Below, piece by piece: positions 5,701 to 42,500 of a stretch of DNA of 64,000 nucleotides. Position 1 is the stretch's first letter, and each line of letters opens with the position of its first letter. Below the pieces are notes generated by a model, which was not told the origin of the DNA, searched no databases, and worked only from the letters and a program-made list of their open reading frames with translations. A program made the translations under genes and the position numbers. The DNA lies in NCBI GenBank assembly GCA_001567355.1, contig JYNZ01000003.1, forward strand, positions 6,655 to 70,654. Reading direction: 5' to 3'. This DNA comes from a candidate division WS6 bacterium OLB20. GTDB taxonomy: Bacteria > Patescibacteriota > Dojkabacteria > B142 > OLB20.

Positions 5701-6892
5701 GCTGACAAATGCACAGGAACAGGAGGCGGGAACAAGTCCGATTATGCCTGACACAGACGGTGACGGACAGCTTGACGGCGAAGAAGTTGAAGGCTGCTTC
5801 TATCTCGATAACACGACTGAATGTTCAGACAACACGTTCGGTCCTACAAATCCGCTGGTACCCGATTCTCCAGGCAATCCCGCGCCACCAACCGCGACAC
5901 CGACTCCTGTCGTTTCTGATCTGCCTCAGACAGGCAACCCGGGTGGGCCGGCAGCATTTGTGGAATCAGTACTTGAATTCTTCACAGATGCCAGTGAGAC
6001 AGCCGTTCCGTCCATTCTGACAGTTGGTGCAGTTGCGACTTCAGCTCTTACTGCAGCTACGTATCCGAGACTGGTTCTCTATGCCGTATTCTGGCTGCGC
6101 CGGCCGAAAAAACAGGCACCGTGGGGAATTGTGTATGATGCCGACAGCCGCACACCCGTGGCATTTGCAGCAGTCAGGTTGTATTCGACAACAGGAGAGT
6201 TTGTAGCTGAGGTAATCTCTGACCTGCAGGGCAGGTATGCACATGCTGTAGACGCCGGGACCTGGCAGATCAAAGCCGAACACCCTGATTATCAGACAGC
6301 TGTCATGTCAGTCAGCAAGGCATCAGCTGATGAGTTTGTCACCCGGGATATAGCAATGGCACACGAACTGACAACCGGTGTACCGGCAAGGGACCGTCTT
6401 CGTGAGCTGCTGCCGAAAATCAACAGCATCATCTTCTCAGCCGGCTTTCTATTTTCAATCCTTGCGCTGCTGTTTTCGCCAAACATATTCAATGCTCTGG
6501 TTACGTTCCTCTACCTGGTGCAGATCTACTTCTGGTACAGGTTTACACCTCGCAAGTCCGGATCTGTTGAGGATCAGTACGGAGCACGTAAAAGCGGTAT
6601 GTTTGTCAGGCTGTTCAGTCAGGAGGAGGAACGTCAGATTGATGTCTCGCTTACAGACAGTGCAGGACGTTATCTGCTGAGAGCCGAACCGGGTACATAC
6701 CTGCTAGCGGTCGGCAGCCAGGATGCAAAAATTGATCCTGACCATCACCGCAGTGAAACTAAATCGTCAGGCAGCGGAACCGAGTTTCTCACTGTTACTG
6801 TTGATCAGGATGGACTTGTAAATAAACGTATACATCTGTTGTCAGGCAGCAGCCAGACTCCCGCGCCTGCATTCGGGGCGCTTGCCGCATGA
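2717..6892 (+). CDS. Large secreted cell-surface protein (1391 aa) with an internal LPQTG sorting-like signal
   Basis: Signal/TM N-terminus. Repeated SGGA propeller-like units. PT-rich linkers at 4500-4560 and 5290-5400. Thrombospondin-type-3-like DxDxDG calcium-binding repeats at 5500-5800. LPQTG at 5921-5935 followed by a TM helix, RRPKK, then two carboxypeptidase-regulatory-like domains and a second TM. Confidence 0.8.
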   Translation: MTRLNKAIYLSLILAILAGLIALSVSRPGSETATSVAGYSAHGWTQKGLSLDSSASQYARGPGENMNGYYSADDGSGGAFFFWHYDGSGSGMRVAQNGSIPCTWAAGGGASYQLVEGNSGEAIMFSDWGRLARKVNSTCSPNVWGVFDIQLYPGNPVGNYNFTKPVSDGSGGAIVASAFSGNYYLQRINSAGVIQWGATGISVPGGSLNHTIVPDGSGGAVYAWVNGTDLYIQRYDAAGAEQWTPGGILVGINVTATPGLAYSGGEYFISYYNGFTNHLQKYNASGVPQFAGPGVNYSSSNFNGITSDGQGGVIISDFSRVRRINNAGTELFTVIPPGVYNRAAVTADGAIVVTAHGFCTTTNGGHDIRSIKYRLSDGATISPSICFSNAVNDQIYPYIRPSGTRDVILSWTDERTPGNNGDLYVMRSAFTNQIFDLPIGYDTRTDPSTRIDGLQGGSTDPSLTNGTTSSSVPVFVYRTSTGRPLALVDDVDMSLDRVWNDFTAEQDLTGTTTAVSGLLSEEGVNSSTMTLYALVNGNSFVRICPSATALVDVTDTCPGGTTADETHPDVSIENINGADYWRVDNQTGIGILSLAAPTPTPTPSPTPAPTVQPIEYHAVDYAGNYAIVDLANGLESNGDTFTVTNEPPGFTFWGASGLVYNPVDCQMYSLARLDDGNSIYFFSLATVDIVTREMTIIGDTGEAISNMFFDDSGNLFGVTGNGSTNPHALVSIDTGTGAATVIHTFADTPGPNNDNYGNTADYHPGDDLVYYLSGYNADRQYQSITTAGTSETNLPYTPDGGTPSEAATVLIYDNDLGEFLMVDWNEEVYTVDTSGNETHLSSLPGTFVNDIKGLAPLSCSLPTPSPTPTNTPTNTPTPTATPTATQSPTPTMTPTASPSASVTLTPTTSATAAVTATSTATTTPDTVTDSDGDGLSDAEEEELGTDPNNPDTDGDGLSDGFESEYTNNSSILNPLSPDSDSDGVVDGLEDHDFDGLTNAQEQEAGTSPIMPDTDGDGQLDGEEVEGCFYLDNTTECSDNTFGPTNPLVPDSPGNPAPPTATPTPVVSDLPQTGNPGGPAAFVESVLEFFTDASETAVPSILTVGAVATSALTAATYPRLVLYAVFWLRRPKKQAPWGIVYDADSRTPVAFAAVRLYSTTGEFVAEVISDLQGRYAHAVDAGTWQIKAEHPDYQTAVMSVSKASADEFVTRDIAMAHELTTGVPARDRLRELLPKINSIIFSAGFLFSILALLFSPNIFNALVTFLYLVQIYFWYRFTPRKSGSVEDQYGARKSGMFVRLFSQEEERQIDVSLTDSAGRYLLRAEPGTYLLAVGSQDAKIDPDHHRSETKSSGSGTEFLTVTVDQDGLVNKRIHLLSGSSQTPAPAFGALAA

Positions 6893-6945: not shown

Positions 6946-7497
6946 ATGGCTACAGCTTCTGAAGCACTTTTGCAGCAGGATCTATGGATCCTACCGCAGG
7001 ACAGAGTGATGGAACTTGCAGATATAACTCACGAACAGCTTACACGACTTGTTCCATCCTACGGTATTGCGCATAACTCAGAACTGCCGTTTCTTCTCCG
7101 GGAAAACAGGGACAACAGCATCCTGATTTCATGTCTTATGGGAGTGGACAGATCACGTGTGGCTGCGCAGCTGCGTGCACGCTCAGGCAGACTGCACCCG
7201 ATACACACCCAGAGTGACAGCCCGGCAGGGGTAGGGTGTAATAACCTCCAGTTCTCCTATTTTGATGGATTGGTATATGCAGCAACACCTGCCGGGATGT
7301 ACAGAATTGATGAGCTGTACCTCTGTCTCGACATTGCAAATGAGCGCAATGATGACCCGCTTGATACAATCGCTTTTGTCCAGACGGGACAACGGCTGCT
7401 TCAGGTACTTGCGGAACGTCCATGCAGCTTACTGCTCACTGTGGTGACAGGAGCAGAAGAAGAATATGCGCCACTTGATGAGCTGCACTTGCTATAA
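6946..7497 (+). CDS. Hypothetical protein
   Basis: 183-aa ORF with no recognisable motif. Confidence 0.4.
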   Translation: MATASEALLQQDLWILPQDRVMELADITHEQLTRLVPSYGIAHNSELPFLLRENRDNSILISCLMGVDRSRVAAQLRARSGRLHPIHTQSDSPAGVGCNNLQFSYFDGLVYAATPAGMYRIDELYLCLDIANERNDDPLDTIAFVQTGQRLLQVLAERPCSLLLTVVTGAEEEYAPLDELHLL

Positions 7498-8202: not shown

Positions 8203-8699
8203 GCAGACCCGTAAAAATACTTCTGGCCGCAGCTGGCTGCGTCATTGCAGTCGCCATCTGCTGCATAGCCGCAATCGGAGGAGGAGTGCTGTTATTCAAT
8301 GAGGCATACAAAACTGATGACCGCATCTCAATATCAGTAGAAACACCCGAACGGATAACCGAAGGCGATGAGTTTGAGTTCCGGATGGTCGTGACAAACA
8401 GCGGTGACAGCGATCTGACCATTACCGAGATGGATATCAGCGAGTCGCTTCTTGAGGGCACCGATGTCATCTCGGTTGATCCCGAGCCGGTATCATCGTC
8501 ATCATTTACAGTAATTGAGGAATACCTTGAATACACGTTTGATCCGTTTACGATCAGACCTGGAGAGAGCAGGGCAGTCACACTTACACTCAAGGCTGAA
8601 TTTGACGGTCTTTACCGGGGAGACATCACGTTCTATAACGACAGGCTCTTTAATCAGCAGGAGTATCACACATCATTCAGGATCCACCCTGAAGAATAA
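8199..8699 (+). CDS. Membrane-anchored hypothetical protein
   Basis: N-terminal TM anchor followed by a beta-rich domain; start overlaps the previous stop by 4 nt. Confidence 0.45.
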   Translation: MSRPVKILLAAAGCVIAVAICCIAAIGGGVLLFNEAYKTDDRISISVETPERITEGDEFEFRMVVTNSGDSDLTITEMDISESLLEGTDVISVDPEPVSSSSFTVIEEYLEYTFDPFTIRPGESRAVTLTLKAEFDGLYRGDITFYNDRLFNQQEYHTSFRIHPEE

Positions 8700-32359: not shown

Positions 32360-32935
32360 GTGGCCATTACGGGTATGCTGGTTGTGTCAGTCAGTTTTCA
32401 TATCAAGACTATCGCATCAACACCGTCCACTGTTCTGCTACCTTTACCAACGCCGGAAGCGTCGTTTAATCTAGGTGCACCAAGCCCCGAGACCTATGCT
32501 GTCGCAGTAGACAAAAAGCAGGTTGAAGAAGAACGCAAGGCAGAGGAGGAGCGCAGACGTGTCGCACGCGAGAACACAATCAATAATCTTGTTAACTATC
32601 TACGCAGAAACGGCTCTCCGATTGCTACCTATGATTATGCGGCACAGATTGTAGATCTGTCTGCTGCAAACGGGGCTGACTACAAAGTCGTCGTTGCCAT
32701 TATGGGAGTGGAGTCCGGATTCTGCCGTGCCTCTTTCTGGCACAACTGTTTCGGTTATCTCAACGGTGTAAAATATAGCTCATATACCAGCGCACTCAAC
32801 GATCTTGTCCCCAAAGTCTCACGTCAGTATGCGGCCCGCTACGGCTGGAACTTTGAGGCTCTTGCCAAGGCATACGGCCAGCATGAGTGGGAGCGTACAT
32901 CTGCCAACATGAGGTGGTTTGCGAGCAGAATCTGA
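32360..32935 (+). CDS. Hypothetical TM-anchored protein (GTG start)
   Basis: 191-aa ORF with an N-terminal hydrophobic segment. Confidence 0.35.
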   Translation: MAITGMLVVSVSFHIKTIASTPSTVLLPLPTPEASFNLGAPSPETYAVAVDKKQVEEERKAEEERRRVARENTINNLVNYLRRNGSPIATYDYAAQIVDLSAANGADYKVVVAIMGVESGFCRASFWHNCFGYLNGVKYSSYTSALNDLVPKVSRQYAARYGWNFEALAKAYGQHEWERTSANMRWFASRI

Positions 32936-33148
32936 CACGCTGCACCTTCGGCATGCTGGCGAGCGCTGGTGCATCAGGTTGTTAGTATTGATCCATCGTG
33001 GATGACTTTGAACAGTTTGACGAGATTGAATCATGCCTCAGCTGCATTGTAAGTGCCGCCTTCTGGATTCTTGTAATCAAACTGCTGTTCTAACTCCATG
33101 ATAGGCCCCGGTGACTACTGAATCAGACACCACTGCGTCTTTACAGAT

Positions 33149-34139
33149 TTGCCATGCCGGGTTATAGTCTATGTTGCATATTACTTTACTGCTGTGCTTC
33201 TGTTAGATCTCCTATTACTGTTTTTGTTTCTGGCTATCCTGATCAAGTCTGCTGATGTATTGCAGGATGCTTTTGTGACAATTGCACACAAACTCCGTCT
33301 GAATCTGTTTCTGATCGGATTTGCAGTCCTCAGTTTTGCGTCATCGCTGCCAGAGATATCTGTAGCTGCAAGCGCATCGTTAGATAATGTTCCCGGACTG
33401 TCGATCGGTAATCTTCTCGGGGCAACAATTGTTCTGCTTACACTGGTAATCGGGTTAAACGCAATCAGGCACCGTGAACTGCCATTCAAGGGCGGGTATT
33501 CGTTCGGCTTTCTTACCATGTCTATGGCAGTAATCGGTACAATGGTTCTTACGCTTGCTGATCAGCATCTGAGCAGACTTGATGGCATTGTGCTGATTTC
33601 ACTCTATGTTTTTTCAACATTTCTGATTGTCCAGAGAGTCAGCAGGAAAAAGGAGCGTAAAAGCAGAAAGAAGATTCATCCATTCAAGCTGCTGCTGTCA
33701 GCGGTCATTGGGACAGCCGGACTGATCATTGCCTCTCAGCTGCTGGTTGATAAAGCTGTTGTTATTGCCAGCCAGCTTGGGGTGCCAAATGCTCTGATTG
33801 GACTTGGAATGCTTGGTCTGGGAACAAATCTGCCCGAAATTACCATGCTGGTCCGGAGCAACAGCGCAGAAAAGGAAAAAACTTGCAGTCGGCAACTTTA
33901 TCGGGAGCGCGTCAATGAACGTGCCGACGATGGGTTTGCTGGCAATCCTTAATCCGCACACGATTAACAGCTTTACAGCCCTGGTTCCGGCGATGATCAC
34001 AATTGCAATAACCCTGCTTGTGTTTTTGCGGTTTGCATATACCGGTCAGGCCATTACGCGCAAAGAAGGGTATGCACTGGTGGCAATCTATGTCATCTGG
34101 CTGACGGCGGAGATGTTTGTTTCGGTGTATCAGTACTAG
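33149..34139 (+). CDS. CaCA family Na+/Ca2+ antiporter, split by a frameshift at the A6 run 33876-33881
   Basis: Both alpha-repeat motifs (GNLLGATIV..., GNFIGSASMNV) lie in two overlapping ORFs. Confidence 0.75.
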
Positions 34140-34170
34140 GTCAGCAAGACCGACAACAAAGCGGGGGGGG

Positions 34171-34260
34171 GTAATTCCCAGTAGTGGTAAAATTACCGCA
34201 CAAGGGAATATGCGGAGCATGACGTTTTTATTCCCCGTAATTCCCCGTAGTGTAAAATAC
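34171..34260 (+). CRISPR. Mini CRISPR-like array: degenerate partial repeat (34171-34196), 27-nt spacer (34197-34223), full 37-nt repeat (34224-34260)
   Basis: The full repeat is GTTTTTATTCCCCGTAATTCCCCGTAGTGTAAAATAC. The partial repeat is GTAATTCCCAGTAGTGGTAAAATTAC and contains an extended -10 (TGGTAAAAT). Nucleotides 1-22 of the full repeat can pair with the 5' end of the small RNA at 38757-38857. Confidence 0.45.
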
Positions 34261-34272
34261 CACATCCGAAAA

Positions 34273-34292
34273 CCCTCCAGAGGAGGGTTTTT
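34273..34292. terminator. Palindromic, apparently bidirectional terminator shared by cas2 (minus) and the mini-array transcript (plus)
   Basis: ccctcc-agag-gaggg is flanked by A-runs on one side and T-runs on the other. Confidence 0.65.
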
Positions 34293-34314
34293 ACGTGTTC
34301 TCGAGCTGGATAAA

Positions 34315-34639
34315 TCAGAACATCAACACCTGTCCCGTTGGTACTTTTAACTCCTGCAATGTTTTTGTACCTACCAGTATCTTCATGTTTTCAAACTGAC
34401 GCTCGGTCACAACCATCGCTCGTACCGAGCCATCATCGGGCAGATTAGACTCGAGTCGCTGCATATGCTTTTTTTACGCCATCGAGTCCGTTACACAGTC
34501 TGCAATATACAGAGAACTGAAGCATGTCATACCCGTCTTTTTCGAGGAACTTGTGAAACCGGCTGTATGCACGTCTGGCATCTTTATCGGATACTGGCAG
34601 GTCAAACAGCACGAGGATTCTCATAAACTTGTTATGCAT
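34315..34639 (-). CDS. cas2: CRISPR-associated endoribonuclease Cas2, with a frameshift in a 7-nt homopolymer at 34469-34475
   Basis: MRILVLFDLP...LQFSVY in the annotated frame. After the run, the -1 frame continues LPDDGSVRAMVVTERQFENMKILVG to a stop at about 34315. Confidence 0.75.
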
Positions 34640-35537
34640 AAGTATGTTGCTTTTGTGCCACAATAACCGGCAGCTTCAGGCTTCCGGGGCTGTTATTTTC
34701 GACTGCTGTTACCAGAGATTTCACCATTTCTTCAATTGCATTTTGCGTACTCATGCGCTTATCGTCCTGCGTTACCTGAATACCAAGTGATCTGACCAAA
34801 GAGGCTTTTACCGCCGGATTTAATGTTTCATCTAGCTCCGGATGAGATGCTACAACAAGATCGACAACCGGCCGGAATGGTTCGATCAGGTCGTCTGCAA
34901 GGTTAAAATTGTTGTACTCATTTTTATGATGGATACCGATACTTGGAATAAAACCATATGCAGCAAGCGAGCGGGCAATTGCGCCCCTGATGACAGCGTA
35001 ACCGTAGTTTAATGCTGCATTGGTTGTATCGTCTGCAAACCTGGCAAACCCTTCAGGAAACAACCTCTGAAAGTAAAAGCGAGCAGCATAGGACTCAAGG
35101 TTACCTGCATCTCCCGACTTTACCCTGGCTGCAGTCATCATCAGCTGGTCGGCACCACTGGAGCCAAGGAGTTTTAATACACGAGCCTGATTACGGATCT
35201 TTTCGCGGACCAACAGCTGCCATAGTCGCTTTTTAAAGACTGCCTTCATCGCGAGTTGCTGCTGCATCCTTTTACGCTGACGGACATGACTCTGAAAAGG
35301 GAGGGCAATACCATGCGGCAGATGCTGGTCATTGCAGAAGTAGACTGCAACATCATTGTGCATACACTCGCTCATAAATGGAGCACTGAGGGTTACCTGA
35401 GGATGCTCGATGATAACTGTTGCGATATCCTCCAGAGGCACAGCAACGTCGTTACCATCAGCGTACGAAAGTATCATGTTACCTGCGCGTGTGTGCAGGT
35501 GGGTGGGATTGGTTATGTAGACGGTGCGGTACGCCAC
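34632..35537 (-). CDS. cas1: CRISPR-associated endonuclease Cas1 (type II)
   Basis: Co-linear similarity to Neisseria Cas1 (VPLEDIATVIIE..., ALNYGYAVIRGAIARSL, NLADDLIEPFRPVVD). Confidence 0.9.
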   Translation of the reverse strand: MAYRTVYITNPTHLHTRAGNMILSYADGNDVAVPLEDIATVIIEHPQVTLSAPFMSECMHNDVAVYFCNDQHLPHGIALPFQSHVRQRKRMQQQLAMKAVFKKRLWQLLVREKIRNQARVLKLLGSSGADQLMMTAARVKSGDAGNLESYAARFYFQRLFPEGFARFADDTTNAALNYGYAVIRGAIARSLAAYGFIPSIGIHHKNEYNNFNLADDLIEPFRPVVDLVVASHPELDETLNPAVKASLVRSLGIQVTQDDKRMSTQNAIEEMVKSLVTAVENNSPGSLKLPVIVAQKQHTYA

Positions 35538-38500
35538 GGGACTTTCCTCTCTTTCTCTCTGGAAAGCGCGTACTTCCTCCCAAGGGGATCAATGTAATAT
35601 TTAGTTACTTTCATCGACTTTATTCCAATACTTCTTTTACTCCACGAGTTATCATGTCCTCGGACTTCAACTGAGGCTGTTGCTCTGTCTGCTTTTACAT
35701 AGTACCCCTCAATAATTTTATCTTTTCCAGTAAGGCAGACGTAATCATCAGGATAGATGGACAACACGAATGTATCTTCCCGCATTTCTGGCCATTCCAA
35801 GTAATCAGCACCGGATTTACTCGCTTTTCGTGGCAACAAGTTACCTGCAAGTTCTCCTATATAAATTGGCACAAAGTAAGTTCCCTTATCCTCGAAGATA
35901 TCTATCCTTATCATATTATCCTGTGCAGCGACTCCATCATTCTTCAGTTGTACAAAACTGCTCGCAGGTCCATCAATAATCTTCACCCGTTTAACTTCAT
36001 TCTGCTGTCTGCCTTCTCTAGCTGGTTTAAGTACAGGCTCTTTAAATGCGGCTTCTGCATCCCACATAAATGCCTCGAGCCTGTCTTTTAACACCTTTAC
36101 CAGCTGAGGGTCATCGCCATAGATGAGATTCTGGTCGAAGTGTTTCTGTTCAAGTTTAGTTATCGGAATACGCTTGACCATCACTTTTCCTCGCTCTGCA
36201 TCTTTTACAGACATGACTGTCTCTTTGTGCAGAGCACCTGTCAGTTTGCGCTCCGCCTTCCGTGACACAAGTATCGGCCGGATCTGATCCAGAATGTCTT
36301 TGTATCTGTCATGCAACTCTGCGTAACTCTGCAGATCATTATGGAGTGTGGAGTCAGCAAAAACTCTAATTGCAAGATCTTTTGCAAAATACGGCCACGG
36401 CTCAGGGAAGTAGTCTTTAGCTTTCTGCGTATGCTCCTCCTGTTTCTTGAAAAATTCTGTTATACGTTGTTGCATTGAACTATCTGCGATAGCAACAATC
36501 ACAGCATCAAGCGCGTGATGTCTGTTTGATTCATCACGGTTTTTCAAATGGTTTACTCCCAGGTACCTACGCAGCATTGCTGTAACCCGTCCCTGAAAAG
36601 CAAAAATCCTTCTCTTAAATGGAGCTGGCTTAAATTCCAGGTGCTGCTCAAGAAACGACCGCAAGTAGCGCGAAATGTAACGGGTGTCGTTCATATCACG
36701 CTCCATAAAAGTCTTGATGTCTCGCTTGTCAAAATCCGTTGTCATTAAACGTTCTTTTTTATAAAGCGGCATATTTGACGTTTGCCACCAGGTCATTAGC
36801 TTTTTCCATAACTCTTCGTTTGTCCCAAGATACTCGTATACAGTCTTGCTGCCTTTATTCTGGTTCTGAGAACTGAGAACAAGCACCTTATTAAAGTATG
36901 AATCATCAAGACTCCTGCTGTAGGGAAGTATGTGATCAATTTCTGTATAAGTGTCATCACTGAAGAGCTTATCTGCCGGTATTGGCATTAATGAGTAAGC
37001 ACAATGATAGGCCTGCTCCGTCCAAAGTTTGTACTTTAAGATATCTTTGCCCTTTGGATCAGACAGGCCGAATTCGTTTTTTAATAGTCTAACTATCCTT
37101 TCATTCTCCTGCCTGTTATCTGCCTGCTGCTTTTCTATAGCACGGCGTTCTTCATGCGTTTTTGACACATCCCGTGCAAACTCGATATGTACCTTGAGAG
37201 GGGAGCCATACTCTTTGATAATGGCATTTACAACAACTCTGGTTTGAGCAAGTGCACGGATTACATTGAAATTTGTAAGGTTGTCAGTATCAATAGGGGG
37301 TAGGTATTTTTGTTGCAGACCGTTTTTTATCCTGATCTCTTCAGGAATTGCCTTAGTAACCGCATCGGAGTAAACCATCCCACTCTTTAATTCCGGGACT
37401 ATTAAATTGAGGGCCTTTTTGGACAGATGTAGAAACCCTTTCAGTTCCGCTATTGCTGATAGTTCCTTAAGCGCGTCATCCTTTATATCAGGGAACAGAC
37501 GTGTGAGTTCTGAGATAATAGCGTCCTCATCCTTATTGAATACCAGCACCTCGACAAGTGAGTCAGCTAGCTCAGTATCTTGATTGATTCTCTCAAGAAG
37601 TACGGGGTCAGTCTTTTTCAATGCCTTTTGAATTGCAGCGACTCCTTTCAGATTAACGAAGAATCCCTGTTTTTCTGAGTCATCTGCGACCTGTTCCCAA
37701 GTCACATTTTTATCTGCTTTCTTTGGTTTTCGGTAGTTAACATTTTTAAACGAAGTATCGTAGGGGAGTGAAAGAATTTTACGGATTCTATTGTGTTTAA
37801 CTGCTCCCTTTTGCAGTGCCTCTGCGACTATTAGCTCACGCTGGTGATCTGACAGCATGACATCCTCATATGACCCTTTCTGTCGCAATCTTAGATTATT
37901 AAGGTTAGAGTAGAGAATGAACAGTTCTGCAGTTCGAGTATTCTTTGCAAGCCGTGGTTCTTCGGCAAAGAACTCGCAGTTACCGATCTTTTCTTCAAGC
38001 GCTGATCGGTTCAGGAATGGTCGCTGAAAAAACATTTCGCCGAGTAGCCGTTCCTGTATATCCTCTGTCAGTCTTTCGTTTCCCAGCTCGCGCTGTCTCT
38101 TAAGTATCAGCCTTGCTTCGTCCTCAAGCATTTCTCGAGCAGTTACACCGATATACGATCCGGAGGAATTGCGTTTACGTTCTTTATACTTATCATCAAG
38201 AAGAAGCATCTCACCAACGGTTCTGTACCCTTTCTGTTTCATCAGGTTTCGGTTCTCAGCAACTGCTTCCAGTACCTTGCCTTCTTCTTTCTCGATTTCA
38301 CTTCTTCGATTAGATTTATACCCCCTGCGTTTAGCAATATGAAGGAGTGCCCGTGCAAGTTCGATACCAGACAACTTCCTTTCCAATGCTTCGAACCGAA
38401 GCTGATATGGGGTTAGATCCTTATTCGACAGCTGTGAGACCAAATCGTAGTACTCAGACCTGGAGGGAATAAGTCCTGAATTCTCAAGAATAGCTAGTGT

Positions 38501-38743
38501 GTGATTTAATCGTTGCCTGCGCCTGTTGAGCCTTCTTCTTGTGGATCTTGCTTCACGACGTTTTTAAGTTTGGCGATGCACCCGTCTTGGGGTCGCCAAC
38601 TTTATTCCAAACCCTCACGCCAAGGTCGTAAATCCGTTTAGGGGTAGTTCTGCCGAGTTTCTCATCTACATCCACCTCCATAACGCTCCACCCAGTGATG
38701 CTACCCCGATATCCAGTCCCAGTATGTAGTTAATATCTTTCAC
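35513..38743 (-). CDS. cas9: Type II-C Cas9 (about 1076 aa, GTG start) with two compensating frameshifts near its 5' end
   Basis: RuvC-I INYILGLDIGVAS, bridge helix ALLHIAKRRGY, HNH DHILPYSRSLDDSYFNKVLV and RuvC-III HHALDAVIVA are all present, with close similarity to NmeCas9. Residues GWSVMEVDVDEKLGRTTPKRIYDLGVRVWNKVGDPKTG are encoded in the -1 frame between a CCC run (38691-38693) and a T5 run (38561-38565). Confidence 0.9.
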
Positions 38744-38756
38744 GAATTCAATTCAT

Positions 38757-38857
38757 AAAAAAGTTGCCCGCAAGCCTGCACAAGCGTGCAGGCTCCGGGC
38801 AAGGGTTACGTAACTCCCAAGCGGGAGCTACTTATTTCTATAACCCGTAATTCCCTG
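38757..38857 (-). ncRNA. Candidate tracrRNA (or cas9 5'-leader RNA): promoter, anti-repeat-like 5' end, nexus-like hairpin, terminator
   Basis: An extended -10 TTGATATAAT (38863-38872, minus strand) precedes 5'-(A)GGGAAUUACGGGUUAUAGAAAUAAG. Then a CUCCC-GCUU-GGGAG hairpin, a 9-bp GC hairpin (AGCCUGCAC/GUGCAGGCU) nested in GCCCG/CGGGC, and U6 (38757-38762). The cas9 GTG start is 14 nt downstream. Confidence 0.5.
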
Positions 38858-38862
38858 GCTGG

Positions 38863-38872
38863 ATTATATCAA
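38863..38872 (-). promoter_or_regulatory. Extended -10 promoter (TGnTATAAT) driving the candidate tracrRNA and the cas9 leader
   Basis: The minus strand reads TTGATATAAT, an exact TGnTATAAT match. Confidence 0.5.
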
Positions 38873-39532
38873 AGCTAATCATATATAGTCTACCCGTGAT
38901 TATTCAGAGGGTCGTAGGATGTAAGATTGTATTTATCTGCAGTTCTATATATTCAAGAATGCTGAGGCTGTTTAGAGCTATGGTTATGCCTCGGGCACAA
39001 GACAGCCCGATGCTGCTCTCCAGGATTTTACACCTTTAGCGTTCTCACCATCAGATCGCAGACTCTGATACCCCGAATCCGGGATCCGACCTCAGGTTCA
39101 GATCTCATCTACAGACGCTAAAGTTCAATACTGGCAGAACGACTGTGCAAGTGGGCTCTACTACTGCTTTGAACAAACATACCCTCTCTGAGCGCAGGGT
39201 TCCCCGATGAGACTCTCCAGTGAGCTTATCCGTGAATTAGCCACCAGAATGTTTTATAACGATGTTCGCAATTTAATCAGTGTTTGTTGATTCTGATTCA
39301 TATTCCAATTCGTCTTGCGAGACTTGTCTAAACGCTGCATTTCGCGGCTATGGTCATTGCTCAAACAAAGCTATAGAGTCTCCTTGCACTGCAAGGGATA
39401 CACAACTAATCCAAGGTAAGATCTGTAGGTAAGGTGTGTCCCTGACGTCCGACCTTACTCGCTGTTTCGGTCTTTCTTTCCTTTTCTAACCCCCCTCATT
39501 TGTTTTAAGATAAGAACATCACACAAACAGAC

Positions 39533-42500
39533 ATGTCTTCACAGAATTTCGTACATCTGCATCTGCACACAGAGTATTCGCTGCTTGACGGCGTTGCCAA
39601 GGTTAAGCCGCTTCTTGAGAAAGTAAAGGAGCAGGGGATGAACGCATGCGCCATTACTGACCACGGTGTCATGTACGGAGTATACGAGTTCTGGAACTAT
39701 GCAAAAGAACTGGGTATCAAGCCGATCCTGGGTTGTGAGATATATGTTGCCCACCGCACAAGGCATGACAAAGAGACGGGAGTGGACAATAAGCGCTACC
39801 ATCTGACCCTGTTTGCCAAAAACCTCACCGGCTACAAAAACCTGCTTAAGATTGTCTCAAAATCACATACAGAAGGCTTCTACTACAAGCCACGAGCTGA
39901 CCGCGAGCTTCTCGAAAAATATGGTGAGGGACTGATTGCGCTCTCAGGATGTCTGGCCAGCAACTTTAACCGGCATCTGGCTAAAGGCGAACGTGCCAAA
40001 GCCGTCGAATGGCTCTCGTTTCTTAAGAAAAATATCGAACATGTCTATGTCGAGGTGCAGCGTAACGGTATCAAAGAATCACATGACCTGATCCCGGAGC
40101 AGGTCGCAGTAGCCAAAGAACTCGGCCTGGAACTGGTTGCGACCTGCGACACACACTATCTCGAGCCCGAGGACCATAAAATCCAGGAGATTGTCTGGTG
40201 CATTAGCGACGGGCGCAAACTGACCGACCCGGAACGCAGACGGTACGGTTCGACAGAGTTCTATCTCAAAAACGCGGCCGAGATGCACAAACTCTTCCCG
40301 GATTATCCCGAAGCAGTTGAAAACTCGCAAAAGATTGCAGATATGGTCGAGATCTACAATATCGAGTTTGACCGAATCCAGCCCCGGTTTGATGAGAGCC
40401 TGGACAGCAAGAGTACCAGGGATCTTCTGTATGAACATACCATGGCAGGAGCAAAAAACCGCTACGACAAGATCACTCCCGAACTTCAGCAACGTATCGA
40501 TTACGAACTCGAGGTGATCCATGACAAAGGATATGACGACTACTTTCTCGTTGTTGAAGACTACATTAACTGGGCCCGCAGACAGGACATTCTTGTCGGC
40601 CCCGGGCGCGGTTCGGGTGCAGGCAGTGTTGTTGCATACTGTCTCGGGATCACCAACCTGGATCCGATCAAATGGGATCTCATTTTTGAACGCTTCCTCA
40701 ATCCCGAACGTATGTCGCCACCTGACTTTGACATCGATTTTCAGGACGACCGCCGGGACGAGCTGTTCCGCTACATGTCAGAAAAGTACGGCCGCGAAAA
40801 CACCTCCTTCATCGGCACATTCGGACGCCTGAAAACAAAGGCTGCAATCCGTGACGTTGCGCGCGTTATGGGTGTGGACCTGAGCATTGCAGACAAGCTG
40901 TCTAAAATGGTGATTGTCAAATTTGGGCGTGTACATTCCATCAAAATGATGCGTGAAGAGGTAAGTGAGTTTGATCAGATCATCAGGGGATCCAGCCAGC
41001 TTGAGGAGTTGTCGGGTTATGTAGGCAAACTTGAAAACCTTGCACGGCATGTTTCGATACATGCCTGCGGATACCTCGTCACACCCAGCCCGATTACAGA
41101 CTATGTACCGGTCCAGCTCGAGCAGAAAGGTGGTGACAAGATCATCACACAGATCGAAGGTCACAACCTCGAGCCGCTTGGACTGATGAAGTTTGACTTT
41201 CTTGGCCTGTCCAACCTGACCGTCATCGCCAATACCATCAAGCAGGTGAAGTATACCCACAACGTTGAGATCGATATTGATACCATTCCGCTTGATGATG
41301 AAAAAACGTTCAAACTCTTTCAGGAGGGTAATACAACCGGTGTCTTCCAGTTTGAGTCTGATGGCATGAAAAAGTATCTGCGCGACCTCAAACCCACCGA
41401 GGTAGAGGATCTGATCTTCCTTAACGCAGCGTACCGGCCCGGTCCGATGAAGTACATTCCTGATTACATCAAGCGCAAACAGGGTAAGGAACCGGTCAAG
41501 TATCCTGATCCAAGCCTTGAACAGGTCCTTAAGCCAACGTACGGTTTTGCCATCTATCAGGAACAGGTAATGAATATTGCAGTGGTCTTTGCCGGCTACT
41601 CACAGGGAGAGGCCGATATGCTCAGACGTGCAATGGGTAAAAAGAAGCCCGAAGTAATGGCCAAGGAAAAAGAAAAGTTTCTTGCCGGCGCCCAGAAACA
41701 GGGTCACAGTAAAAAAGTCGCTGAAGAAGTGTTTGCATACATGGAACCGTTTGCAGACTATGGCTTTAACCGGTCACACAGTGCATGTTACTCACTGATT
41801 GCCTACCAGACTGCCTATCTTAAGGCCAACTACCCGCTTGAGTTTCTTGCGGGTCTGATGGAGACAGATATCAACTCCTCAGACAAGCTGACCCGTGACC
41901 TGCGTGAGGCAAAGGCCATGAGTATTAAACTCAAGCCGCCCAGTGTCAATCACAGCTTCTACAGTTTCAGTATTGAAAACGGCGACTCAATCCGGTTCGG
42001 ACTTGGAGGTATTAAGGGTGGCGGCGAAAAAGCTATGAAGCGGATTGTCGAGCAGAGAATCGAACGTGGCGCATACACTGATATGCTTGATCTTGTCACA
42101 AGGGTCGGAAGCAGCAGTATTTCGCGCAAGGATCTTGAGGCGCTCGTTAAGGTTGGCGCATTTGATGAATTCGGCAACCGAAATCAGATGCTGGAGTTTA
42201 TCCCGTTTGTAACCGAAGCGGTCAGCCGCAAGGAAAAAAGCATGATGGGTGGACAGGGTTCTTTGTTTGGCGATGTGATCGAGCAGCATGAAGAGTATCA
42301 GGCCGAACCTCCCGAACTTCCCAGTGAAAGCGAAATGGACCGTCTCACATGGGAGAAGGAGCTTCTGGGTGCATATATCAGTTCACATCCACTCGACCGC
42401 TACGGTCACATGTTCCTGACAGGCGATGTCACTCCCTCAGAGCGTGCAAGGGGCCTGTCTGACGGGTCATCAATCAGAATGCTGGCCACAATCAGTGCAG

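Follow-up and report, generated by a model that had tools for sequence, protein, structure and literature searches.

Introduction

The position immediately upstream of cas9 is among the known locations of tracrRNA genes (PMC3737331; PMC6546382), and the tracrRNA sequences of distant loci diverge past recognition (PMC3737331). In type II-C systems, the duplex of repeat and anti-repeat follows certain rules: the spacer-adjacent nucleotide of the repeat is paired, the lower stem usually opens with a G:U pair and a bulge separates the lower from the upper stem. The nexus starts 1–3 nt past the hybrid, with an A or AA junction, and its stem often begins with G (Faure 2018; PMC6546382). The tracrRNA of GeoCas9 was found by small-RNA-seq to be encoded upstream of cas9, and its array runs opposite to the cas genes (Harrington 2017; PMC5681539), an orientation that is also known from N. 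meningitidis and C. jejuni (PMC3737331) and that is found here. The tracr-L of S. pyogenes is a natural sgRNA that represses Pcas in trans and has a 5′ extension, a repeat-like segment and a guide of ~11–13 nt (Workman et al., bioRxiv 10.1101/2020.05.21.102756). In Lactobacillus hominis, a repeat-like scaRNA located in the cas9 5′ UTR shares its start with cas9, is co-transcribed with it and carries a guide that targets its own promoter (bioRxiv 10.64898/2026.06.01.729453).

The 64,000-nt stretch of DNA analysed here, from the candidate division WS6 (Dojkabacteria) bacterium OLB20 (the window) contains a minus-strand element at 38856–38757, directly upstream of cas9 in a cas9-cas1-cas2 locus. 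Judged from its sequence, this element is very probably the tracrRNA gene of a type II-C cassette. Here, its architecture, its conservation in related loci and its relation to the transcription of cas9 are described.

Results

The type II-C locus of OLB20 is a relic with a two-repeat array

The cassette contains, in this order, the tracrRNA element, cas9, cas1, cas2 and then a mini-array on the opposite strand, and cas9, cas1 and cas2 are the only cas genes at the locus. The features downstream of the element are the following.

35513–38743, minus strand: cas9 pseudogene, type II-C, with a GTG start at 38743 and two compensating frameshifts near 38690 and 38585
35513–38443, minus strand: annotated cas9 ORF, a 976-aa remnant
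34632–35537, minus strand: cas1, apparently intact, 301 aa (PF01867)
34315–34636, minus strand: cas2 pseudogene, with one frameshift at an A-run near 34470
34268–34291, both strands: hairpin AAAACCCTCCAGAGGAGGGTTTTT, identified by reading the sequence, a bidirectional terminator that separates cas2 from repeat B
34224–34260, plus strand: repeat B in crRNA sense, GTTTTTATTCCCCGTAATTCCCCGTAGTGTAAAATAC, of which the first 22 nt pair with the tracrRNA
34197–34223, plus strand: the single spacer, with a predicted 24-nt guide at 34200–34223, ACAAGGGAATATGCGGAGCATGAC
34158–34196, plus strand: degenerate repeat A, with its 5′ part replaced by a G-run and its 3′ part keeping an extended −10, TGGTAAAAT, at 34185–34193

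The annotated ORF (35513–38443) and the Cas9 of WS6 bacterium OLB20 are 100% identical, the homologues of this ORF are Cas9s of type II-C, and the GTG at 38743–38741 aligned with Met1 of the closest intact homologue. Sequencing errors as the source of the frameshifts were rejected because an independent assembly (L087) was 100% identical across 8931 nt; in this assembly, cas2 is annotated as two pieces (64 and 49 aa). The CRISPR system in OLB20 is a relic, with cas9 and cas2 frameshifted and one usable repeat left, and the biological consequence for OLB20 is small because the system is already inactivated. The preliminary description of this locus had spoken of a Cas9 in need of repair, which agrees with the two frameshifts in cas9, but it underweighed the decay, as cas2 is broken too and two repeats are left.

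The array remnant consists of these two repeats only. In repeat B, the TGn spacing is shorter by a 1-nt deletion, and the 3′ end of the repeat in a related locus, L001, is TGGTACAAT. A hairpin was also found in L001 at the position equivalent to that of the bidirectional terminator. In all the II-C arrays surveyed, the crRNA-sense repeat ended in TATAAT or TACAAT, and the sequence on the cas strand is ...CTA[TC]AAC in every one of the 60-odd arrays of this Cas9 clade; therefore, the crRNAs are antisense to the cas genes and end in the −10 box. The gene content, the antisense array and the extended −10 at the 3′ end of the repeat are those of II-C systems with repeat-embedded promoters. Transcription of the single crRNA would begin, as in Neisseria, at the extended −10 within repeat A, and this RNA would contain the 24-nt guide followed by repeat B. 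A protospacer search with the guide at 34200–34223 gave no match elsewhere in the window or in viral contigs.

A putative tracrRNA gene lies directly upstream of cas9

The interval upstream of the cas9 start codon, read on the minus strand, contains a promoter-like site, an anti-repeat, two hairpins and a short spacer, as given below.

38887–38892, minus strand: −35-like hexamer TAGACT, followed by an 18-nt spacer and then TATAAT preceded by TG
38863–38871, minus strand: extended −10 TGATATAAT, conserved as TGTGATATAAT in L001 and as TGGTAATAT in L009
38757–38856, minus strand: predicted tracrRNA of ~100 nt, from the inferred start at A38856 to the end of U6
38834–38855, minus strand: anti-repeat of 22 nt, with a 12-bp upper stem (38855–38844), two unpaired U (38843–38842) and an 8-bp lower stem (38841–38834)
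38810–38833, minus strand: AA junction (38833–38832) and nexus hairpin GUAGCUCCC-GCUU-GGGAGUUAC (38831–38810)
38803–38809, minus strand: linker GUAACCC, which can pair with GGGUUAU of the anti-repeat in the free RNA (MFE)
38757–38802, minus strand: intrinsic terminator, a 17-bp GC-rich hairpin UUGCCCGGAGCCUGCAC-GCUU-GUGCAGGCUU(G)GCGGGCAA (38802–38764), then C and U6 (38762–38757)
38744–38756, minus strand: spacer AUGAAUUGAAUUC, 13 nt from U6 to the cas9 GTG, without Shine-Dalgarno sequence and without −10 hexamer

TAGACT-18-TGATATAAT (38892–38863) was the top promoter-like site in 33900–39600, with 10/12 matches plus TG to a sigma-70-like consensus, which may not be the rule for Dojkabacteria. 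The extended −10 TGnTATAAT, at 38871–38863 on the minus strand, lies within 1 nt of where the preliminary description had placed it. From this element the RNA would start at about A38856, which is predicted to be 7 nt past the −10 and one nt before the anti-repeat.

When cofolded with repeat B (its first 24 or 37 nt), the anti-repeat formed 12 Watson-Crick pairs, a 2x2 internal loop and 8 pairs including two G:U, and G1 of the repeat (34224) paired with U38834 in the G:U pair that opens the lower stem. The spacer-adjacent nucleotide of the repeat is thus paired, the lower stem opens with G:U and a 2x2 loop separates the two stems, as in other II-C duplexes. This bore out the earlier claim that the 5′ 22 nt of the RNA are complementary to the start of repeat B, over 12 perfect bp and then imperfectly. 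When both strands of the 64-kb window were scanned without gaps, the anti-repeat scored 20/22 pairs (18 Watson-Crick) and the next-best site 18 pairs (13 Watson-Crick), the maximum in 20 shuffled windows being 19 pairs; the anti-repeat was also the top BLAST match to the repeat outside the array. A better-pairing tracrRNA site elsewhere, which the preliminary description had named as evidence against its reading, was thus not found in the window by the ungapped count. The opposite orientation of crRNA and tracrRNA was tried and rejected: it gave no duplex on cofolding, and the plus strand downstream contains neither hairpins nor a terminator. In the proposed complex, the first 22 nt of repeat B would pair with the 5′ end of the tracrRNA, and the nexus and terminator hairpins would form the scaffold that Cas9 presumably binds.

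Past the duplex, the junction and nexus sequence GAAAUAAG is followed by a 9-bp hairpin. The AA junction and the G-initiated stem are those of II-C nexuses, and a Rho-independent terminator stands at the 3′ end of the RNA. The AAUAAG at the duplex-nexus junction, the GC hairpin and the U6 had all been placed correctly, or to within 1 nt, in the preliminary description. The terminator hairpin alone had a folding energy of ~ −31 kcal/mol and the whole RNA −53.4 kcal/mol (z = −6.6), and 0/200 shuffles folded as well. Comparison by RNA folding and by covariance models had been proposed earlier; the fold showed the II-C modules in order, and the covariance models did not detect the element. A model (R1) that was built from 15 Clostridial II-C tracrRNAs and captured only 3 base pairs, too few to be informative, gave 9 bits (E about 9) for L001 and did not list the element of the window, and Rfam at gathering and permissive thresholds gave only chance matches to the element.

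These covariance results are in keeping with a reading in which the element is not a tracrRNA, the anti-repeat being a chance match or a dead repeat remnant and the hairpins the generic leader or terminator of an upstream unit. The 12-nt exact match by itself has E = 0.085 in the window (BLAST), and a gapped scan of duplex energies gave −28.0 kcal/mol for the anti-repeat versus −28.2 to −27 kcal/mol at several irregular, bulged sites, so that other parts of the window also reach about −27 to −28 kcal/mol. The gapped scan is too permissive to single out a site and the ungapped pair count was used instead, by which the anti-repeat with its 20/22 pairs is the unique best partner in the window and above all shuffles. 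All the II-C tracrRNA modules are present in the correct order, and the terminator has no possible owner gene upstream on the same strand. In L001, the repeat mirrors a nucleotide change of the anti-repeat, and at least five other lineages have homologous elements upstream of cas9. On this evidence, a chance match or remnant is highly improbable. The best anti-repeat in the window, the order of the modules, the co-variation with the repeat of a relative and the neighbouring II-C cas9 together uphold the tracrRNA assignment.

The tracrRNA element and the repeat change together in related loci

The loci L001–L006, whose Cas9 is 61% identical, share all of these parts with the window, from the promoter through the anti-repeat, nexus, linker and terminator to U6, and U6 is separated from the ATG by 10 nt. 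The tracrRNA of L001 is predicted at 5891–5988 of that locus, and the bioreactor samples SRR17055919, SRR17055912 and SRR25057015 contain the L001-type contig. The anti-repeat of L001 has UUAU with AUAA in its repeat, where the window has UUAC with GUAA, so that a C-to-U change is matched by a G-to-A change. The nexus of L001, AGAUUCCC-GCUU-GGGAAUCU, has three pairs changed on both sides relative to the window, and its terminator differs in sequence but folds into an equivalent hairpin, again with AACUUUUUU after it. Compensatory changes between the window and L001 were therefore seen in the anti-repeat/repeat pair, the nexus and the terminator, the close covariation being that of one diverged relative (the L001 type) plus a few distant ones. 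The linker GUAACC is kept in L001 and not in L009.

The tracrRNA architecture was found in L001, L009, L090 and L095. In the distant relatives from candidate-phyla-radiation bacteria (L009, L090, L089, L088 and L095), a co-directional upstream tracrRNA fits the repeat of its own locus, and the co-evolution of anti-repeat and repeat was observed in L001 and in L088, L089 and L090, each of which matches its own repeat. Consensus folding with RNAalifold, for which the window, L001 and L009 were aligned by MAFFT, placed the nexus 1 nt out of register and recovered the terminator alone, and the helices were compared by hand. A search of metagenomes with the anti-repeat motif pattern gave 8 matches, of which the real cas9-linked elements were those of L095 and L096 only, which have the same sequence.

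Possible transcription of cas9 by read-through or from its own promoter

The tracrRNA terminator abuts the cas9 start closely, as had been noted before, although the gap was counted here as 13 nt and not 14 nt. No promoter-like site was found in the tracrRNA-to-cas9 interval of the window, L001, L009 or L090, and for the window this agrees with the earlier claim that no second, sigma-70-like promoter lies between the tracrRNA promoter and the start codon. Among 31 II-C loci with a co-directional upstream tracrRNA, 22 contain no promoter-like site before cas9, including that of Geobacillus (L018), and these 22 loci span candidate-phyla-radiation bacteria, Clostridia and Bacilli. A tracrRNA terminator that abuts the cas9 start is common in II-C loci and the layout is not special. 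How widespread this junction is (22/31) lay outside the knowledge of the preliminary description.

On the model proposed here, the strong terminator would stop most of the transcripts and yield the ~100-nt tracrRNA, and the cas9-cas1-cas2 mRNA would come from the read-through fraction because no promoter-like element lies between the terminator and cas9. With read-through, tracrRNA would also be made in a fixed excess relative to the cas mRNA. As far as the letters of the window allow us to infer, the most economical route to a cas9 transcript there is read-through, and termination at the hairpin is predicted likewise. The terminator looks strong (17 bp, U6) and therefore the level of read-through could be very low. 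For this lineage, we lean towards read-through as the main route of cas9 transcription.

Alternatively, cas9 may have or have had its own minimal −10-type promoter at or just past the U-tract and a leaderless or very short-leader mRNA, so that the terminator would insulate two units and not couple them. Elements of this kind stand before the cas9 ATG of relatives: in L095 and L096, TGnTAGAAT ends 8 nt before the ATG, directly past the tracrRNA terminator; TGATATAAT lies 28 nt before it in L088; and a bare TAGAAT ends 6 nt before it in L001, and a bare TAAAAT lies 14 nt before it in L009. Since such −10 elements occur right past the terminator in relatives, read-through is not a necessity in the family, and an element of this type may have disappeared from the window along with cas9 function. 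Most genes of the window lack a Shine-Dalgarno sequence, and many that lack it have ATAAT about 20 nt upstream of the start; therefore, very short leaders are normal in this genome. Against an own promoter, no hexamer between U6 and the GTG in the window combines A at position 2 with T at position 6, and leaderless translation fits a GTG start poorly. The hexamers of L001 and L009 have neither TG nor −35 and lie in AT-rich DNA that gives such hexamers by chance, and none occurs in L090 or most Firmicute loci, where the gap fits a Shine-Dalgarno sequence only. The sequence shared by the window and L001 extends from the tracrRNA promoter to the terminal repeat between unrelated flanks; therefore, any shared cas9 promoter must lie inside this block. 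Taken together, a cas9 promoter at the U-tract is rather unlikely. The preliminary description had held that cas9 must be expressed by read-through; as the most economical account of the window this stands, but for the family it is too strong in view of the −10 elements of L095, L088, L001 and L009.

Possible regulatory roles of the tracrRNA terminator and the mini-array

If the tracrRNA terminator were a regulated attenuator, the binding of crRNA/Cas9 to the nascent tracrRNA would alter termination and feed back on cas9. The arrangement is suitable, as the intrinsic terminator (38802–38757) lies between the promoter (38892–38863) and the GTG (38743), in the order promoter, structured RNA with terminator and ORF, with 13 nt to spare. 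In the free RNA, GGGUUAU of the anti-repeat pairs with the linker GUAACCC and crRNA binding would open this pairing, but the pairing is absent in L009. Pairing is also possible between the U-tract and the start-codon region of the read-through RNA; it is not conserved and its z of −1.5 is not significant, and it was rejected as a translational switch. Furthermore, no upstream segment complementary to the 5′ arm of the terminator and no anti-terminator appeared in the folds, and no structure competed with the terminator hairpin, which was intact in all the MFE and centroid folds, with and without crRNA and with downstream sequence. No paper describing such a mechanism was found in the literature searched. 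The attenuator-like coupling suggested in the preliminary description could thus not be sustained, as no alternative structure competes with the terminator, and a regulated attenuator is very unlikely. A wider idea, that in a large branch of type II-C systems (22/31 loci of the sample fit this) tracrRNA and cas9 form one transcription unit whose terminator sets the Cas9 dosage and responds to Cas9/crRNA in cis, unlike tracr-L, also appears quite unlikely.

The element might also act like S. pyogenes tracr-L or a scaRNA/crlRNA, that is, as a natural guide through which Cas9 would repress the cas promoter. For II-A systems, tracr-L autoregulation is an established mechanism, and it is also reported from II-C (bioRxiv 10.1101/2020.05.21.102756; 10.64898/2026.06.01.729453), and mini-arrays with one or two repeats can encode Cas-regulating RNAs in other CRISPR types (10.1101/2023.03.10.532045). 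The predicted start of the RNA precedes the anti-repeat by 1 nt, and what lies upstream of it is the promoter; because of this start, the RNA would have no 5′ extension with a repeat-like segment or guide. The mini-array guides of the window, L001, L088 and L089 showed no seed match of at least 9 nt near their own promoters or in the other DNA searched, and a self-targeting or autoregulatory mini-array guide was rejected. The parallel with S. pyogenes tracr-L drawn earlier was dropped, there being neither a 5′ extension nor a guide matching the promoter, and a role of this kind for the element is extremely improbable.

Discussion

The element upstream of cas9 in OLB20 is an ordinary tracrRNA gene, of a known type and with a layout that is common in related systems. 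The explanation as a whole, a II-C tracrRNA gene combined with read-through as the main route of cas9 transcription, is held with good confidence. With this outcome, the tracrRNA and the crRNA of a Cas9 lineage from candidate-phyla-radiation bacteria (Dojkabacteria) can be designed with confidence. The Cas9 of an intact relative (P0002), together with the L001 tracrRNA, is a candidate compact II-C nuclease, for which the L001-type crRNA would consist of a 24-nt guide and GCUUUAUUCCCCAUAAUUCCC... In the literature searched, we found no paper that examines the terminator abutting the cas9 start. If read-through is true, it would be a simple and general way for cells to fix the ratio of tracrRNA to Cas9.

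As with S. pyogenes tracr-L, the proposal made here links the tracrRNA to the level of cas9 expression. Unlike tracr-L, the OLB20 RNA has none of the 5′ features of that RNA, and the proposed link works in cis, via read-through of the terminator. The proposal also resembles the L. hominis scaRNA, in that a small CRISPR-type RNA and cas9 would share one start; the RNA here differs as it is an anti-repeat-bearing tracrRNA without a guide.

The array resembles that of Neisseria meningitidis, with repeats of ~36–37 nt that carry an extended −10 at the crRNA-sense 3′ end (TGGTAAAAT in the window and TGGTACAAT in L001) and an orientation antisense to the cas genes (PMC3737331), and the AAUAAG junction and a predicted guide of 24 nt are also common to both. 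In the Neisseria loci surveyed (L021 and L076), the anti-repeat upstream of cas9 is reversed and the tracrRNA is divergent from cas9, as is also the case for the Bordetella II-C tracrRNA (PMC4624362). In the window, unlike in Neisseria and Bordetella, the tracrRNA runs in the same direction as cas9 and abuts the start codon of that gene.

The Cas9 of the window and GeoCas9 share about 36% identity. The tracrRNA of Geobacillus stearothermophilus has an anti-repeat of ~32 nt and several hairpins, and a clear Shine-Dalgarno sequence precedes cas9, whereas in the window the anti-repeat has 22 nt and begins at the predicted transcription start, there are two hairpins and the 13 nt to the start codon contain no Shine-Dalgarno sequence. 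In the Geobacillus locus L018, the tracrRNA is likewise co-directional with cas9, its last terminator ends 34 nt before the GTG and no promoter-like site lies between them. As in the GeoCas9 system, the tracrRNA of OLB20 is encoded upstream of cas9 and the array runs opposite to the cas genes.

The element before cas9 is a type II-C tracrRNA gene

The largest ORF beside the element (35513–38443, minus strand) matched, with 100% identity, the Cas9 annotated in candidate division WS6 bacterium OLB20, which belongs to the Dojkabacteria within the candidate phyla radiation; homologues of this Cas9 are type II-C Cas9s. The minus strand reads in the order candidate RNA, cas9, cas1, cas2, a hairpin and two repeat copies. 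The promoter, anti-repeat, junction with nexus and terminator that the preliminary description had placed before cas9 were all confirmed, and could be read in order as follows.

Features of the element (all on the minus strand)
38892–38863: promoter; TAGACT, 18-nt spacer, TGATATAAT
38855–38834: anti-repeat, GGGAAUUACGGGUUAUAGAAAU
38833–38832: AA junction
38831–38810: nexus hairpin, GUAGCUCCC-GCUU-GGGAGUUAC
38809–38803: linker, GUAACCC
38802–38764: GC-rich hairpin of 17 bp
38763 and 38762–38757: C, then U6
38756–38744: spacer of 13 nt
38743–38741: cas9 GTG

The tracrRNA promoter was the top sigma-70-type match within 33900–39600, and the 109-nt stretch containing the RNA (38858–38750) folded at -53.4 kcal/mol (z = -6.6, 200 shuffles). 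Between this promoter and the divergent dnaE lies an ORF-free region of ~640 nt (38893–39532), unusually long for such a compact genome; compared with 20 shuffles it folded somewhat better on the plus strand (z = -3.1) and no better on the minus strand (z = -0.9), and it had no Rfam match. The sole Rfam gathering-threshold match in the window was a tRNA gene at 189–260.

When cofolded with repeat B in the plus sense (GUUUUUAUUCCCCGUAAUUCCC...), the RNA formed a perfect 12-bp upper stem and, across a 2x2 internal loop, an 8-bp lower stem whose first pair is G:U; no duplex was formed with the opposite repeat orientation. In an ungapped scan of both window strands, the anti-repeat site paired at 20 of 22 positions (18 Watson-Crick), the runner-up reached 18 pairs (13 Watson-Crick) and the maximum in 20 shuffled windows was 19. 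The same site was the best BLAST match to the repeat when the array was excluded; a gapped duplex-energy scan discriminated it less well. Sequence criteria published for the tracrRNAs of II-C systems (PMC6546382) ask for pairing of the spacer-adjacent repeat nucleotide, which was found, and agree with the G:U first pair of the lower stem, the bulge splitting lower and upper stems, the nexus beginning with G 2 nt past the hybrid and preceded by the AA junction, and the Rho-independent terminator at the RNA 3' end. Judged by its sequence, the element is a tracrRNA gene of canonical type II-C form; it occupies a position already described for such genes, inside a decaying Dojkabacterium CRISPR-Cas cassette.

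The cassette is decaying in OLB20 and conserved in relatives

The OLB20 Cas9 showed 61% identity over its 976-aa ORF to P0002, the closest intact homologue. With P0002 as reference, the cas9 frame is lost and regained near 38690 and 38585 by two compensating frameshifts, affecting the 5' end (38743–38443), and cas2 is broken by one frameshift at an A-run at about 34470. These lesions are real and assembly error was ruled out, because contig L087, assembled separately from the reads of a different run (SRR29904084), matched the window at 100% identity over 8931 nt. Since the frameshifts recur there, the OLB20 CRISPR-Cas system is genuinely inactivated.

The P0002 loci from several metagenomes (L001–L006) carry the same element before cas9, consisting of TGTGATATAAT, GGGAAUUAUGGGUUAUAGAAAUAA, nexus AGAUUCCC-GCUU-GGGAAUCU, linker GUAACC, terminator and AACUUUUUU, with 10 nt from the U-tract to the cas9 ATG. 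One C-to-U change in the anti-repeat of the P0002 locus is matched by a G-to-A change in the repeat of the same genome, three nexus pairs are altered on both sides relative to the window, and the terminator, different in sequence and equivalent in shape, has additional double changes. A co-directional tracrRNA fitted to its own repeat was also found upstream of cas9 in the more distant candidate-phyla-radiation loci L009, L088, L089, L090 and L095/L096. When window 32513–41443 was compared with L001, the shared block ran only from the tracrRNA promoter through the terminal repeat; the flanks were unrelated, the neighbouring genes encoding DNA polymerase III alpha and a Na/Ca exchanger in OLB20 but an EamA transporter and hypothetical proteins in L001. 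Because OLB20 and L001 share the cassette alone, the comparison suggests that it moved as one unit.

Transcription of cas9

No promoter-like element was found between the tracrRNA start and the cas9 GTG in the window, by standard criteria or in a relaxed scan admitting extended -10 elements, and likewise none before cas9 in L001, L009 and L090. In a survey of 80 II-C loci from reference genomes, the anti-repeat lay just upstream of cas9 in most; it was divergent from cas9 in proteobacterial loci, and co-directional at 100–200 nt before the cas9 start in about 26 Clostridia/Bacilli loci. Adding the window and the candidate-phyla-radiation loci to these Clostridia/Bacilli loci brought the co-directional set to 31, of which 22 had no promoter-like site before cas9. 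The gap often fits just a Shine-Dalgarno sequence, as in L045 (8 nt), L053, L085, L047, L040 and the Geobacillus locus L018 (34 nt). A promoter-like site was present in nine of the 31, and a separate promoter was convincing in L011–L013, L007, L035, L054 and L088. Across the loci compared, the tight tracrRNA/cas9 junction is real, conserved and widespread, and it probably reflects co-transcription through read-through. Given the 22 loci, read-through is the most economical explanation, and the layout is common in the clade rather than specific to the window.

A separate minimal cas9 promoter in this lineage is the less likely explanation, with a small but real chance of being right. In its favour, in L095 (2537–2700, locus minus strand; L096 identical) a TGnTAGAAT follows directly on the tracrRNA terminator, with 8 nt from its end to the cas9 ATG, and this implies that cas9 mRNA of L095/L096 would be leaderless or near-leaderless and made from its own promoter; bare TAGAAT (L001) and TAAAAT (L009) occur at the equivalent position. 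OLB20 genes also generally lack a Shine-Dalgarno sequence, and ATAAT is frequent some 20 nt ahead of their start codons, suggesting that very short leaders of this kind may be the norm in OLB20. Most long window ORFs lack a Shine-Dalgarno sequence, and several have ATAAT ~20–25 nt before the start (e.g. near 7497, 12901 and 25790). The earlier proposal of obligatory read-through thus holds as to the empty window gap, but the -10 elements of L095, L001 and L009 argue against its being obligatory. On balance we lean towards cas9 being expressed by terminator read-through. In full-text searches of part of the journal literature, we found no paper examining whether cas9 mRNA derives from such read-through.

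Nothing suggested a regulated attenuator, as had been proposed for the coupling. No structure competing with the terminator was found: its hairpin always formed intact, whether the RNA was folded by itself, together with crRNA or with downstream sequence added. Both candidate switch pairings failed. In the free RNA, GGGUUAU of the anti-repeat can pair with the linker GUAACCC, and this pairing is missing in L009. In a read-through RNA (38762–38736, minus strand), the U-tract could pair with AUUCGUGAAAGA in a 12-bp A-U/G-U hairpin enclosing the cas9 GUG, and in L045 and L018 it could pair with the Shine-Dalgarno sequence; the effect was not significant (z = -1.5) and not clearly conserved.

Arrays and comparison with known systems

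All retrieved arrays of this Cas9 clade read ...CTA[TC]AAC on the cas strand, and therefore the crRNAs would be antisense to the cas genes, starting with GUU... and with a TATAAT/TACAAT box at the end. Such antisense arrays were experimentally shown in N. meningitidis and C. jejuni (PMC3737331) and for GeoCas9 (PMC5681539). The 3' end of repeat A retains an extended -10, TGGTAAAAT; a transcript started from it would contain, in order, a 24-nt guide, repeat B and the hairpin of 34268–34291. A run of nine G (34162–34170; C9 on the cas strand) stands in place of the tracrRNA-pairing part of repeat A. Several candidate-phyla-radiation Cas9 loci have just one or two repeats after cas2.

Mini-arrays
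Window 34158–34260 and L089 about 8500–8600: degenerate 'promoter-only' repeat, one spacer, one full repeat
L001 10455–10492 and L088 about 8385–8422: single repeat, despite intact cas9, cas1 and cas2

The mini-array guides had no self-targets in the DNA searched (the window and retrieved relative loci), and the window spacer matched no viral contig.

The upstream position, possible co-directional transcription and antisense arrays have been published (PMC3737331, PMC6546382, PMC5681539), and a small CRISPR RNA co-transcribed with cas9, scaRNA, has been described (bioRxiv 10.64898/2026.06.01.729453). The suggested parallel with the long S. pyogenes tracrRNA (tracr-L) was not borne out; the element is not its analogue because a 5' extension, a repeat-like segment and a guide are all absent. 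The mini-arrays, with one or two repeats, are similar in layout to the regulatory mini-arrays of CreR/crlRNA.
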